From NCBI GenBank assembly GCA_041609995.1, contig JBFIPU010000002.1, forward strand, positions 3,733-67,732: DNA of 64,000 nucleotides, written 5' to 3'. The first letter of the stretch is position 1. Each line of letters opens with the position of its first letter. Positions 5,660 through 29,845 of the stretch are shown here, one piece after another. The stretch comes from Acidimicrobiia bacterium (GTDB lineage Bacteria; Actinomycetota; Acidimicrobiia; Spongiisociales; SHLN01). The position numbers and the translations under genes are program-made. Below the pieces are notes generated by a model that did no database searches, had not been told where the DNA came from, and saw only the letters and a list, made by a program, of their open reading frames with translations.

Positions 5660-6670
5660 CTACTCCTGCGTTGCGGCCGGACGGCCGGCCAAAAGCGCAC
5701 TGATTTTACGAAGTCGTCCGAGGTCGTGCCGGGCGCTCATCCGGCGAATCGCTCCGGTTTTTGACCGCATGACCATTGACTCCGTCAACACTTGGCTTCC
5801 TCGATACTGTACCCCCGACAACCACTCTCCGTCGGTTACGCCCGTGGCGGCGAAGTACACATTATCGGAGTTCACGAGGTCCGAGTGGGACAGAACCGAC
5901 GAGATGTCGCGACCCGTTTCGCGGGCGTAGGCCTCCTCTTCGGGCGAGCGGGGCCACAGCCGACACTGGATGTCTCCACCGAGACATTTGAGGGCGGCGG
6001 CCGACAACACGGCCTCGGGCGATCCGCCGATTCCGAACAGGATGTCGATGCCGGAGTTCTCGATGGACGTGGCGATCGCCCCCGCCACGTCACCGTCTTG
6101 GATGAGGCGAATCCGGGCGCCGGCCGCCCGCACATCGGCGATGAACTTCTCGTTACGCGGCCGCTGCAGGATGATGGCTGTCACGTCCTCGATGGACTTC
6201 TCGCGCGCTTTGGCCACCCGGGCCAGATTGTGGGCCACCGGCGCGTCCAGGTCGATCATGCCGGCCGCCTCCTGCCCCACAGCGATTTTGTCCATGTAAA
6301 CGAGACTGCCGGGCGAGTACATGGAACCTGCATCCGACAAGGCAATCACGGAAACGGCGCCTGGCATGCCGTTGGCGGTCAGCGTCGTTCCGTCGAGCGG
6401 ATCGACCGCCACATCGAGCTTGGGCCCCTTGCCGGTTCCGACCCGCTCGCCGTTGGCCAGCATCGGGGCACCGTCTTTTTCCCCTTCGCCGATGACGACC
6501 ATTCCGTCGATGTCTACATAGTCGAGAATCAACCGCATGCCATCGACCGCTGCCTGATCCGCCGCTTCTTTGTCACCGCGGCCCTGATATCGGGCGGCGA
6601 GGATCGCAGCTGTCTCTGTCACCCGGGCGAGGTCAAGCCCGAGGTTGCGCTCTGGTGCTTCCGCCATCAT
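5660..6670 (-). CDS. glpX: Fructose-1,6-bisphosphatase class II
   Basis: Full-length GlpX-like sequence (..DGMRLILDYVDIDGMVVIGEGEKDGAPML..VDPLDGTT..IDILFGIGGSPEAVLSAAALKCLGG..). Confidence 0.9.
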   Translation of the reverse strand: MMAEAPERNLGLDLARVTETAAILAARYQGRGDKEAADQAAVDGMRLILDYVDIDGMVVIGEGEKDGAPMLANGERVGTGKGPKLDVAVDPLDGTTLTANGMPGAVSVIALSDAGSMYSPGSLVYMDKIAVGQEAAGMIDLDAPVAHNLARVAKAREKSIEDVTAIILQRPRNEKFIADVRAAGARIRLIQDGDVAGAIATSIENSGIDILFGIGGSPEAVLSAAALKCLGGDIQCRLWPRSPEEEAYARETGRDISSVLSHSDLVNSDNVYFAATGVTDGEWLSGVQYRGSQVLTESMVMRSKTGAIRRMSARHDLGRLRKISALLAGRPAATQE

Positions 6671-6751
6671 CCTCCAGAATAGGAAGGGGAGAGGGACGGT
6701 GCTGGCCCATCTGGTCCAATTTGTCCTGGTCCCCCCGGTCCCATTGTTGTC

Positions 6752-12434: not shown

Positions 12435-12920
12435 CTAGTCGCGGAAATTCGTGTACTGAAGCGGGAGCGGCACGTCCATTTCTTTGACGGCGGCAATGGC
12501 GGTCTGGAGGTCATCGCGCTTCTTGCCCGTCACCCGCAGCTGGTCGCCCTGGATCTGTACCTGCACTTTCAGCTTCAGATCACGGACGTGCTTGGAGATC
12601 GCCTTGGCGTGTTCTTGCTCGATGCCTGAATTCAATCGAAACACGGCCTGCGACCGGCCCCCGCCGATTTCGGTCGGGTCGCCACCGCTGAGGGCCTTGA
12701 GGGACACCCCGCGCTTGATGAGCTTGCTCTGGAGGACGTCGATCGCTGCCCTGACCCGGTCTTCGGTCGAAGACCCCACGGTGATGGTGTCGTCGCCCAG
12801 CGAAAGGCTCGTGCCGGTGTTCTTGAAGTCGTAGCGGTTGACGACTTCCCGATTGGCCTGGTCGACGGCGTTGCGGACCTCCTGCAGATCGATCTCACTC
12901 ACGATGTCGAAGCTGGGCAT
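12435..12920 (-). CDS. YajQ-family (UPF0234) nucleotide-binding protein
   Basis: [33 protein letters not shown]..; ~161 aa from the ATG at 12920. Confidence 0.85.
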
Positions 12921-13003
12921 GCGGGCAGAATAGCCACCGGTCAGGAACAGTTTGTTGCCGGCCGCCGTTAAGAAAGTGCTTGCCACATGAAGGAGACCGT
13001 GCG

Positions 13004-13399
13004 ATGGAGAGCTTGACCGAAACCGAATGGCGCGAGCGCCTCACACCCCAGCAGTTCGAGGTACTCCGCAACGCTGCGACCGAACCCCCGTTCACGGGGA
13101 TCTACTGGGACGAGAAGGCTCCGGGTGTCTACAAGTGCGCTGGGTGCGGGTCGGAGCTCTTCGTCTCGGATACCAAGTTCGAGTCGGGGAGCGGTTGGCC
13201 CAGCTTCTGGGAGCCGATCTCCGACGACGCGGTGGCGCTGAAAGAAGACCGGTCCCACTTCATGGTGCGGACCGAGGTCGTCTGCGCCACCTGCGACGGT
13301 CACCTCGGACACGTCTTCGAGGACGGCCCGGCTCCGACCGGACTGCGGTACTGCATGAACTCGGTGGCGTTAGAGCTCGAAGCGGCCGAGGATGCCTGA
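13004..13399 (+). CDS. msrB: Peptide-methionine (R)-S-oxide reductase
   Basis: Two CxxC pairs (CAGCGSELF ... [16 protein letters not shown]) and the RYCMNS catalytic motif. Confidence 0.9.
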
Positions 13400-13448: not shown

Positions 13449-14600
13449 CTACGAATCGTCGGACTGATCGACCAGCAGCCCGGCGGTGATCAGCTGAGCG
13501 ATCAACTCATCGACGTCGGAACCGGCAGTACCGACGTCGATGTTGTAGGAGCTGACGACAGCGGCCACGGTTTCTGACCGCTCCCGCCCGTTCGCCACCT
13601 GGTCCCAGATGAAGGCAGAGGTTCCTGTCAGGCGAACAACCTGTCCGCCGGCCGTGTCGGCCACCACGACAGATTCCTCGTCCTGGGCGTACAGCGTGGA
13701 CGGAGCCAGCCGCATCCAGCCGCTCCATTCGCTGATGGTGCGGATCGGCGTATCGGTCGCCTGGTTCTTGAGACACAGCTCGGGCGGCACCAACCGCCAT
13801 CCGCTCTCGCTCGTATCGAGAGCTCGATTCCAGAATCGGATATCTGGCTCGTTCCACGGAAACACGACGTGGTCCGGTTGGCCGTCCCAGTAGCGGTCGT
13901 CGTGCTCGGTCCACCGCTGCTCCCAATCACCGTGGTCGTCCCCCAGCCGCTCCGGAGCGTGATCCACGAGGTCGACGCCACTCACCACCGAAACCACCCT
14001 GGGCTCGGCTGCAGTAATGGCGGACCGCAGCTGCGGGGTCGAGAACAGCGGCGCGAACACGATTTCACTCGCCTCGAGCCTCGCCAGATGACGCCGGAAC
14101 TGATCTCCCGAGTAGGCGACGTCGTCGAACACGACCAGCGGCCGGGCCTCCGCCTCCGGCTCCGGATCCCCTTGCCCGAGCAGGTACGACATGACCCCGA
14201 GCACGAACCAGCCGCCGCGGGGGATGGCACTCAGCGGCCAGTGCGTGATCCCAGCCCCCAACTCCTCACGCAATCGCCCGGCCAGCGAGCGGCAGGCAGC
14301 CTCGACGCCCGGATAGTCCACATAGCGGGTATGAGGCGCCACGTGGGCCAGCATCCAGTGCAGGGCTGTCAAGCGTTGGAGATCGGCTTCGTCGAAGCGG
14401 CCGGCGATGCCCGCGAGGCCGGTGGCGGGCCTCACCACGAGCTGCGGCTGGTTCATCTGCCGGAGAAGCGGGCTCGACTGGATTCCACGACACGCAGCCA
14501 CTGTTGGGGGCGCGCCGATCCTCTCGCTCATCGGTGAGAAGAACGCGAGGGCAGGGGAGAGGTCTAGAGGTTCGAGGTGTAGCGTTTGGGCTGAGGCCAC
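13449..14600 (-). CDS. Fusion protein: N-terminal type-I phosphoribosyltransferase-like domain + C-terminal PqqD-like RiPP recognition element (RRE); putative leader-guided lasso-peptide tailoring enzyme
   Basis: Central PRPP-loop-like motif RPLVVFDDVAYSGDQFRRHLARL. C-terminal ~85 aa (ESVVVADTAGGQVVRLTGTSAFIWDQVANGRERSETVAAVVSSYNIDVGTAGSDVDELIAQLITAGLLV) has the PqqD/RRE pattern. Begins 9 nt after the precursor stop. Track start is GTG at 14600; internal Mets at residues 24 and 48 are alternatives. Confidence 0.6.
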   Translation of the reverse strand: MASAQTLHLEPLDLSPALAFFSPMSERIGAPPTVAACRGIQSSPLLRQMNQPQLVVRPATGLAGIAGRFDEADLQRLTALHWMLAHVAPHTRYVDYPGVEAACRSLAGRLREELGAGITHWPLSAIPRGGWFVLGVMSYLLGQGDPEPEAEARPLVVFDDVAYSGDQFRRHLARLEASEIVFAPLFSTPQLRSAITAAEPRVVSVVSGVDLVDHAPERLGDDHGDWEQRWTEHDDRYWDGQPDHVVFPWNEPDIRFWNRALDTSESGWRLVPPELCLKNQATDTPIRTISEWSGWMRLAPSTLYAQDEESVVVADTAGGQVVRLTGTSAFIWDQVANGRERSETVAAVVSSYNIDVGTAGSDVDELIAQLITAGLLVDQSDDS

Positions 14601-14609
14601 CCGGGCAAA

Positions 14610-14747
14610 CTAGTTGCCCATTCCTTGCCCCATACCGCTGCCGAAGTTGGCGTCAAAGCCCGGGTTACTTGGCCCGTTCTGTGTGAGCTCGGCAATCGAG
14701 CCCAGCCGCTCCACCTTCGGTTTGGTGTATTCCAGCTTCTTGTCCAT
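14610..14747 (-). CDS. Lasso peptide precursor (45 aa), absent from the ORF track
   Basis: Hand translation of the minus strand: MDKKLEYTKPKVERLGSIAELTQ-NGPSNPGFDANFGSGMGQGMGN*. Leader matches the lasso consensus Y-x2-P-x-L/V-x3-G-x5-T-x with Thr at -2. Core has an Asp at position 9 (8 if Gly is residue 1) for the macrolactam. RBS AAGGGG 7 nt upstream of the ATG. Sits between the cyclase and the RRE-fusion gene on the same strand. Confidence 0.8.
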   Translation of the reverse strand: MDKKLEYTKPKVERLGSIAELTQNGPSNPGFDANFGSGMGQGMGN

Positions 14748-16624: not shown

Positions 16625-17599
16625 TTGCGCTCGGAAACCTGCTGGGCGGGAGCTATGAACGATTATCGGATCTACGGCCGCAATCTCCGGTCTTCATTCC
16701 GTTTCGAAAACCGGCTGCTCCCGGCTGCCGGCGAGCCCGAGCTCTATTTTGGGGCGGTGGCAGGACCGGCCTTTGACGCCTCGGTCCACAAACTGGTCTA
16801 TCAAACCGAACCGCCCATCTACGACGGGAAGGCCGAGTTGTACCTCTTCAAGGGAGACGACGAGTTCGTCTTTGAATTCACGGGCGCCAGCCGCTTCCAT
16901 GTGAAGAGTCAGGAGATCCTCTTCGAGGTCACCCATCCCGAGTATTCGTTTCTGACCGAGATCTATTTCCTGGGAATCATCATGAGCGCCTGGCTGGAAC
17001 TCCAGGGTGTCATCGCTCTCCACTCGGCGGCGGTGGCGGTCGGTGACAGGGCGGCGGGGTTCGTCGGGCTCAACCAGGCGGGCAAGAGCACGCTGGCGGC
17101 GTCCCTCATGAACAGAGGTCATGGCCTGATGACCGATGACGTGTTGGCCGTCGAGAAAGTCGAAGGCCGGTTCGTGGCCCACCCCGGCTATCCCCAGATG
17201 CGCATGTGGCCGGAAATGGCGATGGCATTCGGCCTCGATCCCGGGTCGCTGCCCAGGGTGCATCCAGAATTCGACAAAGTGCGCGTGCCGGTCGGGGAGG
17301 GAGGATTCGGGCGCATGCGCCGCGAGGCAGCAGAGCTCTCTCGCATCTATGTCGTGAACCGCGATGACCGTGCAGACGCGCCGGCGGTTCAACCGATGAC
17401 TTCGTCCGAGGCGATGTCCGAGTTGTTGCGCACCTCCTTCGCCGGTCTCGTGCTGGGGGGGATCGAGGTCAGCCACACGAGGTTGCCGGTCGTAGCACAA
17501 TTGGTGGGAGAGGTTCCGGTGCGTCGCCTGACGTATCCGGCCAACCGGTTCGAAGCGGCGTTGGAGATGATCGAGGAGGATGTGCGTGGCAGGCTATAG
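16625..17599 (+). CDS. HPr kinase/phosphorylase C-terminal-domain-like kinase (lasso-peptide kinase family)
   Basis: P-loop region LHSAAVAVGDRAAGFVGLNQAGKSTLAASLMNRGHGLMTDDV typical of HprK-like kinases reported in phosphorylated lasso peptide clusters. Start may be the Met at 16655. Confidence 0.7.
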   Translation: MRSETCWAGAMNDYRIYGRNLRSSFRFENRLLPAAGEPELYFGAVAGPAFDASVHKLVYQTEPPIYDGKAELYLFKGDDEFVFEFTGASRFHVKSQEILFEVTHPEYSFLTEIYFLGIIMSAWLELQGVIALHSAAVAVGDRAAGFVGLNQAGKSTLAASLMNRGHGLMTDDVLAVEKVEGRFVAHPGYPQMRMWPEMAMAFGLDPGSLPRVHPEFDKVRVPVGEGGFGRMRREAAELSRIYVVNRDDRADAPAVQPMTSSEAMSELLRTSFAGLVLGGIEVSHTRLPVVAQLVGEVPVRRLTYPANRFEAALEMIEEDVRGRL

Positions 17600-18524
17600 C
17601 CTCGTTCAGTACGGCGAGATGTTGGCTGATCGAGTTCGAACCTCTGCCTACGTCCGGGCCATGGAGGAGACCATCAAGGCGGGTGACGTCGTGCTGGATC
17701 TGGGGGCCGGCCCCGGCTTCTTTGCGATCAAAGCGGCTTTGATGGACGCCAGGAAGGTCTATGCCATCGAGCCCAATCCCAGCATCGCGCTCGGGCGAGA
17801 GCTGGCCCACACAGCCGGGGTCACCGAGCGGGTCGAGTTCATCCACGCGCTCTCGACCGAAGTCGAATTGCCAGAGAAGGCGGATGTGATCGTGGCCGAT
17901 TTGCGCGGTGCGCTGCCGCTGTACGACGGCTCCATCACGACGATTGCCGACGCCCGCGATCGACTCCTGGCGCCGGGCGGTACATTCATCCCGCTGCGAG
18001 ATGACCTCTACTGCGCCCCCACCTCCGGGGCCCTGAGCCGGGGCTACTCGATATGGACCTCCGAGGAAACCGGGCTCGATCTCACTCCGGGAGCCAAATA
18101 CGCCCTGAACACGTGGGATGCGAGACGCGTTGATCCGTCAATGCTCGCCGCCGGCCCGAGGAAATGGGCGAGCATCGATTATCTCTCGGTCGACAGTGCC
18201 GGGATCAGCGGTCGCGCCGTTTGGAAAGCCGACCATCCTTTCGAAGCGGATGGTTTGTGCCTCTGGTTCGAAACCGAGCTGATCCCGGGCATCGGATACT
18301 CGAGCGGACCGTTGGGGGAGGCCACCACGTATCGCATGGCGTTCTTTCCTCTTAGCGAGACCCTCCGCGTCGATGCCGGTGGACAACTGGAGGTGGAGAT
18401 CGAATCGAGCCCAATTGGCGACTCCCCAGCCTGGACCTGGCAGGCGCGGACGGTCGACGCTGCTGGAGCAATACACGAGCCGGCCAAGCAGTCGAGCCTG
18501 CTGTCCATGCCCATTCCCCGCTGA
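17580..18524 (+). CDS. PRMT-like (protein arginine N-methyltransferase fold) class I SAM-dependent methyltransferase
   Basis: RTSAYVRAMEETIKAGDVVLDLGAGPGFFAIKAALMDARKVYAIEPN..VEFIHALSTEVELPEKADVIVADLRG..RDRLLAPGGTFIP aligns motif-by-motif with the PRMT1 core ([53 protein letters not shown]), plus a C-terminal beta-barrel-like domain. Confidence 0.65.
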   Translation: MCVAGYSLVQYGEMLADRVRTSAYVRAMEETIKAGDVVLDLGAGPGFFAIKAALMDARKVYAIEPNPSIALGRELAHTAGVTERVEFIHALSTEVELPEKADVIVADLRGALPLYDGSITTIADARDRLLAPGGTFIPLRDDLYCAPTSGALSRGYSIWTSEETGLDLTPGAKYALNTWDARRVDPSMLAAGPRKWASIDYLSVDSAGISGRAVWKADHPFEADGLCLWFETELIPGIGYSSGPLGEATTYRMAFFPLSETLRVDAGGQLEVEIESSPIGDSPAWTWQARTVDAAGAIHEPAKQSSLLSMPIPR

Positions 18525-18809: not shown

Positions 18810-19268
18810 TCAGTCGAACCGTTTGCCTTCTACCGGACCGGCAAAGGGAGCGTACAGCGTTGCGACGTCGTCATCGTCATTCACAACGGAGCCGTCGACC
18901 TCCACCCAGGCGTGAAAAAGGATCGCACCCTCCTCCTTCTTGACCCCGAAGCGCACGTCGGCGGGAATACCATGTTTTCGCAGGAGCGCCAGTGCCGCTG
19001 TCGACCGGGCGAGACAGTTCGGGCGGCCGATCGAGTATTTGGCAGCCAGAGAAACCAGAGATGCGATATGACGAGCTTCCTCGATTGTCGCCGACCTGGG
19101 TGCGGGTCGCCGGGCCAGCAAATCGTGCATTCGCTGAAATCCCGCCAGGCGGAAGCCGATACGGGTTATATGGAGCAGCCACCAGGCGCGAAACAACAGA
19201 CGACGGTCTCTGCCGGTGAGATCTCTGACGAGGATTCGAATCCGATTGGCCCAGACGGAGCGCAGCAT
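18810..19268 (-). CDS. Lasso peptide biosynthesis B2 protein (transglutaminase-like leader peptidase)
   Basis: Catalytic Cys/His/Asp region RPNCLARSTAALALLRKHGIPADVRFGV..GAILFHAWVEVDGSVVNDDD. Start chosen at Met-29 (19268); the track ORF extends to 19352. Confidence 0.85.
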   Translation of the reverse strand: MLRSVWANRIRILVRDLTGRDRRLLFRAWWLLHITRIGFRLAGFQRMHDLLARRPAPRSATIEEARHIASLVSLAAKYSIGRPNCLARSTAALALLRKHGIPADVRFGVKKEEGAILFHAWVEVDGSVVNDDDDVATLYAPFAGPVEGKRFD

Positions 19269-19324
19269 GCTCCAAAGCGTATCGGCTATGGCCGGCACGG
19301 GTCCGCCGCCATCGCACGGTTTCG

Positions 19325-20455
19325 GTGGGCGACAATGACATGGTGACCGCAATGCCGCGCCACGTGCCCCCCTTCTGGCCGGACGAGACGGAACTCGGCC
19401 TGTTGCGGGCTGCCCTCCTCCCAGATCAGCGGGCGATCCACGCCTGGCGGCAATTGGACCTGAGCTCGGTCGGTGCGCGTCACGAAACCTGGAGCCTGCT
19501 TCCCCTGGCGTTTTTCAATCTCAAGGATCTGGGGGTCCCCATCAACGACATGGCCGAGGCGGCCGCCGCCTACAACCGGACACTCGATACCAATCGCGTG
19601 CTTGCTCAGGCGGCCTCGGAGACGATGGCGTCTTTTCTTCGCGAGGGCATCGATCACGTCGCCCTCAAGGGCCTGGCGTTGTTGACGACGGTGTATCCGG
19701 ATCTGGGAACGCGTCCGATGTTCGATGCCGATGTGATGGTGCGAAGTCTCGACGTGAAACGGGCTGCCCGGGTGTTGGGCCGGGCCGGATACCATCCCGC
19801 CACCCCACTCGAGGATGCCCTTCTGGCCACCAGAGCGAGTGCTCAGTTCGTTAATGCGGACGGGATCGACATCGACCTCCATTGGCACGCCCTCGGCGGA
19901 TACGTGGCCGAGCCATTCGACGATGCGCTGTGGCAGGGGCGGGTCACCACCACCTCGCCGCTGGGGATGGAGATGAAGGTGCTGAGCCGGGCCGAGCAGC
20001 TCACCCAGGTGATCGGGCATGCACTCCGCGCCGGGTGGCCAGGCACGCGATGGTGGGCCGATATCGCCCTGCTTCTCAGATCGTCCTGGACCGATGACCA
20101 GTGGTCACGTCTCGGCGAGTTGGCTTCTCTGTTCCAGATGACGCTTCCCATGTCGGGAATCCTGACGTACCTGCGTGACCATGTCGGCATCGATGTTCAG
20201 CGTGAGGCCTTCGAAGTCCTAGAACGCAACCGCCCGTCTCGATCAGAGAGGATTCAACGCCGGGCGCTCAGCAGGCTCGATCCGGGTTCTACGACAGCGG
20301 CCTTGCTGCGGTCATGGGCCACGTATGCCGCCGTGCAAGCCGCCGGGGAACGCCGCCGGGGGCCGGTTGGCTTCACGCGCTTCACATGGAGGTACCTCGG
20401 ATCGGGCTCTGATGCCGGCAATGCACTCGAAGCCATACGTCGCAAACTCAGCTGA
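19325..20455 (+). CDS. Nucleotidyltransferase-family protein (NTP_transf_5/pfam14907-like)
   Basis: ..VALKGLALLTTVYPDLGTRPMFDADVMVRSLDVKRAARVLGRAGYHP.. matches the 'uncharacterised nucleotidyltransferase' family commonly found in kinase-containing lasso clusters. Divergent from B2; the true start may be a few codons downstream. Confidence 0.6.
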   Translation: MGDNDMVTAMPRHVPPFWPDETELGLLRAALLPDQRAIHAWRQLDLSSVGARHETWSLLPLAFFNLKDLGVPINDMAEAAAAYNRTLDTNRVLAQAASETMASFLREGIDHVALKGLALLTTVYPDLGTRPMFDADVMVRSLDVKRAARVLGRAGYHPATPLEDALLATRASAQFVNADGIDIDLHWHALGGYVAEPFDDALWQGRVTTTSPLGMEMKVLSRAEQLTQVIGHALRAGWPGTRWWADIALLLRSSWTDDQWSRLGELASLFQMTLPMSGILTYLRDHVGIDVQREAFEVLERNRPSRSERIQRRALSRLDPGSTTAALLRSWATYAAVQAAGERRRGPVGFTRFTWRYLGSGSDAGNALEAIRRKLS

Positions 20456-24305: not shown

Positions 24306-24361
24306 CCCGGTTAACGTCTTTCGGGTGATGAGTGGTCGATACGCTTCTGCCTGGTGACGCC

Positions 24362-29841
<5,480 letters not shown>

Positions 29842-29845
<4 letters not shown>

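Follow-up and report, generated by a model that had tools for sequence, protein, structure and literature searches.

An HprK-like kinase with a candidate internal phosphorylation site in a lasso-peptide cluster of an Acidimicrobiia bacterium

Which residue does an HprK-like kinase modify when the lasso-peptide precursor encoded near it ends in Asn and not in Ser? This question is raised by a gene, originally predicted at 16625-17599, in a stretch of 64,000 nucleotides from an Acidimicrobiia bacterium (assembly GCA_041609995.1, contig JBFIPU010000002.1, positions 3,733 to 67,732; the whole stretch is called the window below). The gene lies in a complete lasso-peptide cluster at 13.4-20.5 kb of the window, as judged from the list of open reading frames (ORFs) and from Pfam and NCBIfam profile searches. 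A leader-bearing precursor, a B2 peptidase, a PqqD-type B1 protein, and an asparagine-synthase-like cyclase are all present (Table 1), and the kinase would tailor the lasso precursor, which is encoded 1.9 kb away. Ribosomal peptides are seldom tailored by phosphorylation. On balance, and with modest confidence, we favor the reading that the kinase, a member of an undescribed clade, phosphorylates an internal Ser of this precursor in a leader-dependent manner, with Ser14 as the favored site. The parts of this reading differ in strength. Judging from the sequences, phosphorylation on some internal Ser/Thr is likely, Ser14 stands an even chance of being the main site, and Ser4 is a distinctly less probable main site.

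The original prediction assumed that the characterized lasso kinases need a C-terminal Ser. PadeK, ThcoK, SyanK, and PsmK act on the C-terminal Ser (2021 review, PMC8498205), but the premise is outdated. BsfK phosphorylates Ser3 of BsfA, a precursor ending in Asp, in a leader-dependent reaction that B1 speeds up (Duan et al. 2023, PMC10368454), and LppK puts several phosphates on Ser3 of a linear ribosomally synthesized peptide with post-translational modifications (RiPP) (Popov et al. 2026, PMC13381572). Since both enzymes act on an internal Ser3, a missing C-terminal Ser is no longer unprecedented or surprising in itself. The site types of HprK-like RiPP kinases described so far are the C-terminal Ser, Ser3 of a lasso peptide, and Ser3 of a linear peptide (PMC8498205, PMC10368454, PMC13381572). 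The clade described here, widespread in uncultured lineages, points to a candidate fourth type, a Gly-Ser/Thr motif situated mid-tail. Internal-site kinases being already known, what is new is this kinase branch and its phosphoribosyltransferase-like partner, both undescribed in the literature searched; the interest lies in this partner, a fusion protein, and in the motif conserved in the tail. If true, the reading would widen the chemistry available for lasso-peptide engineering and would let one ask whether a modification can lock the lasso fold.

The precursor and its candidate phosphorylation sites

The precursor consists of the leader MDKKLEYTKPKVERLGSIAELTQ followed by the core NGPSNPGFDANFGSGMGQGMGN. 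A search of the window with the leader pattern gave this ORF alone and no second precursor. As the original prediction stated, the core has no hydroxyl residues other than the internal Ser4 and Ser14, and the last residue is Asn, encoded by AAC directly before TAG. The conserved leader spacing places the start of the core at Asn1, not at Gly, which gives a 9-residue ring from Asn1 to Asp9. A first core residue other than Gly (T, N, V, S, or A) is common in the clade, and every core in the subfamily of the window precursor has Gly2.

The terminal Asn itself has to be secured. The database entry of PsmA ended in Asn by a one-base error and resequencing gave Ser (PMC6993621), and AAC (Asn) is one base apart from AGC (Ser), so that a slip in an ordinary paeninodin-type precursor with a C-terminal Ser target would have a precedent. 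However, the same ending, GGC AAC TAG, is found in the window and in two distinct divergent relatives (the core shared by loci L001, L002, and L008, and that of L009; four assemblies), whose precursors are 64% identical to that of the window (BLAST), and C-terminal Ser is at background among the cores of the clade. Because the ending recurs in divergent relatives from other assemblies, the Asn is real, and a sequencing error behind it was rejected as virtually impossible.

The loci of the clade were collected by a genome scan (51 loci; 15-sequence alignment), a metagenome scan (80), and individual protein look-ups. A looser leader pattern picked up little but noise. The strict pattern used in its place, Y..P.L...G.....T., has Y at -17, P at -14, L at -12, G at -8, and T at -2; it found precursor-like ORFs in 45 of the 57 loci at that stage of collection, which share this spacing with the window leader (V at -12), and finally gave 84 distinct cores. 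The leaders of these precursors have the canonical T(-2), and Ser is not conserved at the C-terminus; only eight of the 84 cores end in Ser, which is about background, and five end in Asn. A hydroxyl residue is instead conserved in the tail. Ser/Thr occupies core position 14 in 60% of the 84 cores (background 18%), and at least one Ser/Thr lies within positions 13-15 in 73/84, against 44% expected. This residue is usually preceded by Gly; of the first 42 cores, 27 have Gly at position 13. The proposal in the original prediction that an internal Ser may be the target agrees with these counts. In four loci with the order cyclase-precursor-kinase (L018, L049, L054, and L055), the fusion described below is lacking and Ser/Thr13-15 is still kept; the motif is thus independent of the fusion.

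In the ring, Ser/Thr is found at positions 3-4 in 42 of the 84 cores (32% expected), and this signal comes almost wholly from the subfamily of the window precursor, x[GA]xxxP[GA]x[DE]; Ser/Thr4 is conserved only there (23/26 cores), and 22 of the same 26 cores have Ser/Thr13-15. Outside the subfamily, Ser/Thr13-15 is present in 24 of 28 cores, whereas Ser/Thr3-4 is present in just 11 of 28. Ser14 is favored as the site because Ser/Thr13-15 is kept throughout the clade, including the cores outside the subfamily and the loci without the fusion. A separate sub-group of cores (L099, L118, L136, and L138) has the pattern NAC....[DE]..[SP]C..., with two Cys that may form a disulfide, and here a conserved G-R-S-T-P-G or E-G-T-T-P-G motif near position 22-25 replaces the Gly-Ser at position 14.

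Several points weigh against the favored reading. The curated families related to HprK match the window kinase and its 39 homologues far below their cutoffs (scores are given below). The p value for Ser/Thr13-15 among the 84 cores (about 7e-16) overstates the evidence, since related sequences are not independent and the pattern was designed by ourselves; the comparison covered only cores linked to the kinase. Eleven of the 84 cores have no Ser/Thr at 13-15, and in one of them the Gly-Ser motif is shifted by 7 residues, where a simple distance rule fails. This shift, together with the NAC...C sub-group, weakens the idea that the site is fixed purely by its distance from the leader. Alternatively, the Gly-Ser/Thr motif could be what the phosphoribosyltransferase-like enzyme modifies, or the lasso fold could require it structurally. 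Within the subfamily of the window (n = 26, metagenome loci included), conservation at position 4 and at positions 13-15 is inseparable, and both characterized internal-site kinases act at core position 3 (PMC10368454, PMC13381572), which favors Ser4.

The last two points belong to a rival explanation, in which Ser4 in the macrolactam ring is the kinase site and Ser14 serves another purpose, e.g., modification by the phosphoribosyltransferase-like enzyme or a structural role. Read from Gly2, the window core begins GPSNPGFD, resembling GTSGNEVD of BsfA, and BsfK accepts Thr (PMC10368454), fitting the Thr4 found in most relatives. Were the leader cut one residue later, which is possible, the ring would be Gly1-Asp8 and its Ser would be Ser3 as in BsfA. 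On the other hand, the leader has Thr(-2) at the canonical spacing from Y(-17), which makes the ring residue Ser4 and not Ser3. Outside the subfamily, hydroxyl residues at positions 3-4 are seen in a minority of cores, as counted above, and several kinase-linked cores have rings with no hydroxyl at all (e.g., GPMGGIED, GPGGFLPD, and GPLNGLQD). Considering both sides, we regard Ser4 as an unlikely site, though the first to be considered after Ser14.

With Ser14 as the preferred site, the reaction may be pictured as follows. The kinase would act on the linear, leader-bearing precursor, as do BsfK, ThcoK, and LppK, and a PqqD-type domain, that of the fusion, the stand-alone B1, or both, may present the precursor to it. 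A phosphate of ATP would then be moved onto an internal Ser, namely Ser14 of the Gly-Ser/Thr motif, the ring residue Ser4 being the second candidate. The phosphoribosyltransferase-like domain, the nucleotidyltransferase, and the methyltransferase might then build on the phosphate or cap it. The analysis establishes the fold, the catalytic residues, the gene context, the conservation counts, and the terminal Asn, whereas kinase activity, the site, the leader dependence, and any later elaboration are proposals.

The phosphoribosyltransferase-like fusion

The most consistent neighbor of the kinase is a fusion protein, which adjoins it in 37 of the 51 genome loci and almost always lies directly upstream, in the order cyclase-precursor-fusion-kinase. 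Neither this fusion nor the methyltransferase, the start of which overlaps the kinase stop by 20 nt, had been used in the original prediction. The AlphaFold2 model of the fusion is of high confidence (mean predicted local distance difference test score, pLDDT, 94.1). In Foldseek searches, its C-terminal domain superposes on leader-bound lasso B1 proteins (TbiB1/FusB1, with structure 6jx3 among them) with template modeling scores on the target (TMt) of 0.87-0.90, and its middle part matches type I phosphoribosyltransferases in fold (XGPRT/HGXPRT, TMt ~0.55, E 1e-4). The motifs PRGG and VVDDxxxSG are conserved, with PRGG, DD, and G invariant. The Pfam model Pribosyltran is matched by 4 of 25 fusion members, the window protein not among them. 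No phosphoribosyltransferase in lasso or RiPP recognition element (RRE)-dependent biosynthesis was found in the literature searched.

Starting from fusion homologues, we found a locus (L058, 3398-8167) in which cyclase, precursor, fusion, and kinase stand together and no B1 or B2 was seen within 6 kb; a cyanobacterial cluster lacking B, to which the pseudomycoidin paper refers, is comparable (PMC6993621). Two fusion loci without the kinase look decayed, one by a split cyclase and the other by a transposase insertion.

In pseudomycoidin, PsmN adds hexose to the phosphate, and by analogy with it we infer that the fusion may put phosphoribose on phosphoserine. In many tails of the clade, Gly, Ala, and Ser abound and bulky residues are few, so a modification itself could act as a plug and prevent the threaded tail from slipping out of the ring. 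Taken together, these features could be read as an undescribed lasso subclass, in which a leader-guided kinase and the fusion build a phospho-ribosyl-type group on the tail Gly-Ser/Thr near position 14 and the group acts as a steric plug. The methyltransferase and the nucleotidyltransferase would sometimes modify this group, the former being linked to a neighboring Met. We consider this extended scheme speculative and quite unlikely as a whole.

The association of kinase and fusion also permits a different order of events, in which the kinase targets no peptide hydroxyl first and phosphorylates an installed (phospho)ribosyl group, extends a phosphate, or makes a small-molecule donor. The adjacency of the two genes in 37 of the 51 genome loci fits this, as do the phosphoribosyltransferase-like fold and the motifs expected of a phosphoribosyl pyrophosphate site (PRGG and DD...SG) kept in the fusion. 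Related kinases add phosphates serially (PMC8498205, PMC13381572), and one member of the kinase family weakly matches the model of the phosphonate-monophosphate kinase FomB. However, the four cyclase-precursor-kinase loci without the fusion keep the same Ser/Thr motif, all the characterized relatives phosphorylate a peptide Ser directly, and the activity of the phosphoribosyltransferase-like domain is only putative. This order of events is therefore very unlikely, and the suggestion in the original prediction that the kinase may act on a group installed by another enzyme is not supported, as nothing points to such a step.

The kinase and its relation to known systems

The ORF originally predicted exists and is HprK-like, as weak matches to Hpr_kinase_C and TIGR04352 and the fold of the AlphaFold2 model agree in indicating, but its start had to be revised. 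The TTG at 16625 lies 30 nt (ten codons) too early, and the true start is probably the ATG at 16655, because a GGGAG Shine-Dalgarno sequence precedes it (16648-16652), a 314-aa protein identical from this ATG is called in four public contigs, and the close homologues all begin at the corresponding Met.

Matches to the profiles of curated families are weak. The kinase gives 23 bits with Pfam Hpr_kinase_C (under the gathering score), 33.0 bits with TIGR04352 (HprK_rel_A; cutoff 200), 24.4 bits with TIGR04355 (cutoff 200), and 19.5 bits over 38 residues with TIGR00679, the model of genuine HprK/P (cutoff 240). All 39 family members match TIGR04352, the best E-value being just 4.5e-11. No curated model covers this clade, and no description of it was found in the literature searched. 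The AlphaFold2 model (pLDDT 89.7) has no low-confidence segments. Its Foldseek matches are ATP-dependent PEP carboxykinase (ATP-PEPCK; E 6e-7, template modeling score on the query, TMq, ~0.5) and HprK/P (1kkl, 3tqf, and 2qmh; E 4e-6 to 1e-4, TMt ~0.5), with similar significance.

The catalytic signature is complete. The kinase has His123, Gly138, Gly143, Lys144, Ser145, Asp161, and Asp162, i.e., a GxxxxGKS Walker A motif and an Asp-Asp pair, and His123, Gly143, Lys144, Asp161, and Asp162 are invariant in 39 homologues. In BsfK, His148, Gly163, Gly168, Lys169, Ser170, Asp186, and Asp187 were found essential by mutagenesis (PMC10368454), and the same signature was shown to be essential in PsmK (PMC6993621). 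In an alignment with BsfK, taken from the codon-optimized bsfK printed in PMC10368454, all the essential residues are kept in the window kinase. The alignment covers the whole catalytic domain (BLASTP, 28% identity over 203 aa, E 5e-13; hhalign probability 98.3% over 198 columns). The Walker A sequence, GLNQAGKS, differs from GRSGAGKS of BsfK at Gln141, which corresponds to Gly166 of BsfK. Solved HprK/P structures, by contrast, match over only ~55 residues around the P-loop in a profile search of the Protein Data Bank (E 4.6e-6 to 0.008). The gene apparently encodes a catalytically intact peptide kinase with the HprK/PEPCK fold, and we infer, from sequence, that it acts on a peptide. By sequence, it is a member of the HprK-like RiPP kinase superfamily and not a genuine HprK/P.

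The low scores against all the curated kinase models and the altered Walker A motif could also mean that the protein is catalytically inactive and serves as a scaffold or a leader- or core-binding subunit alone. This is highly improbable, since none of the residues that are essential in BsfK is missing or variable in the clade, the G166A variant of BsfK, mutated at the differing position, has almost wild-type activity (PMC10368454), and the predicted structure is confident throughout. The weak Pfam and NCBIfam matches are also what would be seen for a genuine HPr kinase/phosphorylase of carbon catabolite control lying beside a lasso cluster by chance, but this can be dismissed: the TIGR00679 score and the ~55-residue limit of similarity to solved HprK/P rule it out, and lasso genes adjoin the kinase in most related loci from many phyla. 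The grouping with bona fide HprK that the original prediction had named as a refutation was accordingly not found, the alignment with BsfK spanning the full domain.

The closest relatives of the kinase (57-59% identity) are encoded in metagenome-assembled genomes (MAGs) of Acidimicrobiia with the same gene set as in the window, and more distant relatives (31-44%) were found, among other groups, in Acidobacteriota, Gemmatimonadota, Chloroflexota, Cyanobacteria, Deinococcota, and Salinivenus. In the majority of the 51 genome loci, the kinase gene has a cyclase gene or a precursor-like ORF beside it. Homologues were also found in two MAGs labeled as methanogenic archaea, L012 (Methanothrix) and L013 (Methanolinea, 6072-6732), which could be a genuine transfer or mis-binning. 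Two tandem precursors accompany the cyclase, B1, and B2 in L013, and L012 has no other lasso gene within 8 kb of the kinase.

Among the characterized systems, the bsf cluster of Bradymonas sediminis resembles that of the window in having an HprK-like kinase with B1, B2, the cyclase, and a nucleotidyltransferase, and a precursor that does not end in Ser. The kinases share the catalytic residues over an aligned catalytic domain, but the identity is only the 28% given above, the bsf leaders have Ile(-2) where the window clade has Thr(-2), and the bsf cluster has neither the fusion nor the methyltransferase. The conserved hydroxyl residue is at core position 3 in bsf and at 13-15 in the clade. BsfK-type precursors are marked by Ser/Thr at core position 3 and a leader with Ile/Val(-2); the window precursor, with Ser4 and Thr(-2), is not of this type.

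The paeninodin-type kinases PadeK and ThcoK, PsmK of pseudomycoidin, and SyanK from proteobacteria are likewise HprK-like kinases that tailor lasso peptides, and they act on the linear precursor. The cluster of the window also shares a nucleotidyltransferase with pseudomycoidin, in which PsmN adds hexose to the phosphate (PMC6993621). Unlike the window kinase, however, these enzymes need a C-terminal Ser, the mark of paeninodin-type precursors, and the window precursor ends in Asn. The separation here follows from the published descriptions and from the scores with the curated models, TIGR04352 and TIGR04355 being built on proteobacterial systems related to this type. LppK is an HprK-like RiPP kinase whose site is an internal Ser3 and whose partners are an NTP transferase and a separate leader-binding protein. 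In contrast to the full lasso set of the window, the clusters for these linear polyphosphorylated peptides (LPP) have no lasso cyclase, contain a signal-peptidase-like leader peptidase, and come from Bacillota. HprK/P and ATP-dependent PEP carboxykinase share the P-loop kinase fold and the signature of His, Walker A, and Asp-Asp with the window kinase, but sequence similarity is confined to ~55 residues, and these enzymes have another N-terminal domain, another substrate, and other gene surroundings. Overall, the observation of an HprK-like kinase beside a precursor ending in Asn is confirmed, and the interpretation given to it is partly supported.

Accessory enzymes and features of the cluster

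A methyltransferase gene lies directly downstream of the kinase gene also in L011, L014, L023, L032, and L050, which belong to distant phyla. All seven distinct cores with the methyltransferase have Met within 2 residues of Ser/Thr13-15, compared with 0/35 without it (Fisher p 3.7e-8, relatedness not corrected). Arg or Lys, the expected target of a PRMT/PrmA-type enzyme, is not common to the cores of the methyltransferase loci.

The original prediction suggested that the adjacent nucleotidyltransferase could elaborate the phosphate. The NTP_transf_5 protein is indeed present, but its role as a partner was not upheld; among the 51 genome loci, it occurs only in the closest relatives and in L011, L031, and L036. 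It is an optional accessory and not the regular partner of the kinase.

Table 1. Features of the lasso-peptide cluster in the window
Feature	Position	Strand	Remarks
Fusion protein, 383 aa	13449-14600	-	C-terminal PqqD domain, Pfam PqqD 44.7 bits; parts: N-terminal domain, type I phosphoribosyltransferase-like domain, conserved middle domain, C-terminal PqqD/B1-type RRE
Fusion motif PRGG	14211-14222	-	
Fusion motif FDDVAYSG	14106-14129	-	
Lasso precursor, 45 aa	14610-14747	-	NF033521 lasso_leader_L3 21.7 bits, cutoff 19
C-terminal Asn22 codon	14613-14615	-	AAC, then TAG
Ser14 codon	14637-14639	-	G13-S14 motif; favored candidate phosphorylation site
Ser4 codon	14667-14669	-	Ring residue; alternative candidate phosphorylation site
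First core codon (Asn1)	14676-14678	-	Placed by conserved leader spacing
Lasso cyclase (C), asparagine-synthase-like, 590 aa	14838-16610	-	Pfam Asn_synthase 92.8 bits; NF033535 E 4.9e-46
HprK/PEPCK-fold RiPP kinase (putative), 314 aa	16655-17599	+	Start revised from TTG 16625
Kinase catalytic core	17021-17140	+	His123 17021-17023; Walker A GLNQAGKS 17066-17089; Asp161-Asp162 17135-17140
S-adenosylmethionine methyltransferase, PrmA/PRMT-like	17580-18524	+	Pfam PrmA 36.9 bits, Methyltransf_25, PRMT_C
B1, stand-alone PqqD-type leader-binding protein (RRE), 91 aa	18525-18800	-	PqqD 60.9 bits
B2 leader peptidase, transglutaminase-like	18810-19352	-	NF033537 lasso_biosyn_B2 91.5 bits, cutoff 33; Transglut_core3
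NTP_transf_5 nucleotidyltransferase-family protein	19325-20455	+	PF14907 113 bits, cutoff 31.2

Public assemblies call a shorter form of B2 (162 aa). Next to the cluster but not part of it are a YajQ-family protein (211 bits) at 12435-12986 (-) and an ORF at 12980-13399 (+), which from its sequence we take to be a methionine sulfoxide reductase B. Despite the Met content of the core, the vicinity of the latter is probably a coincidence, because this neighborhood is not kept in relatives. Farther downstream, a 1837-aa ORF at 24332-29845 (+) presumably encodes a fused biotin carboxylase, biotin carrier, and carboxyltransferase, as read from the ORF list only.

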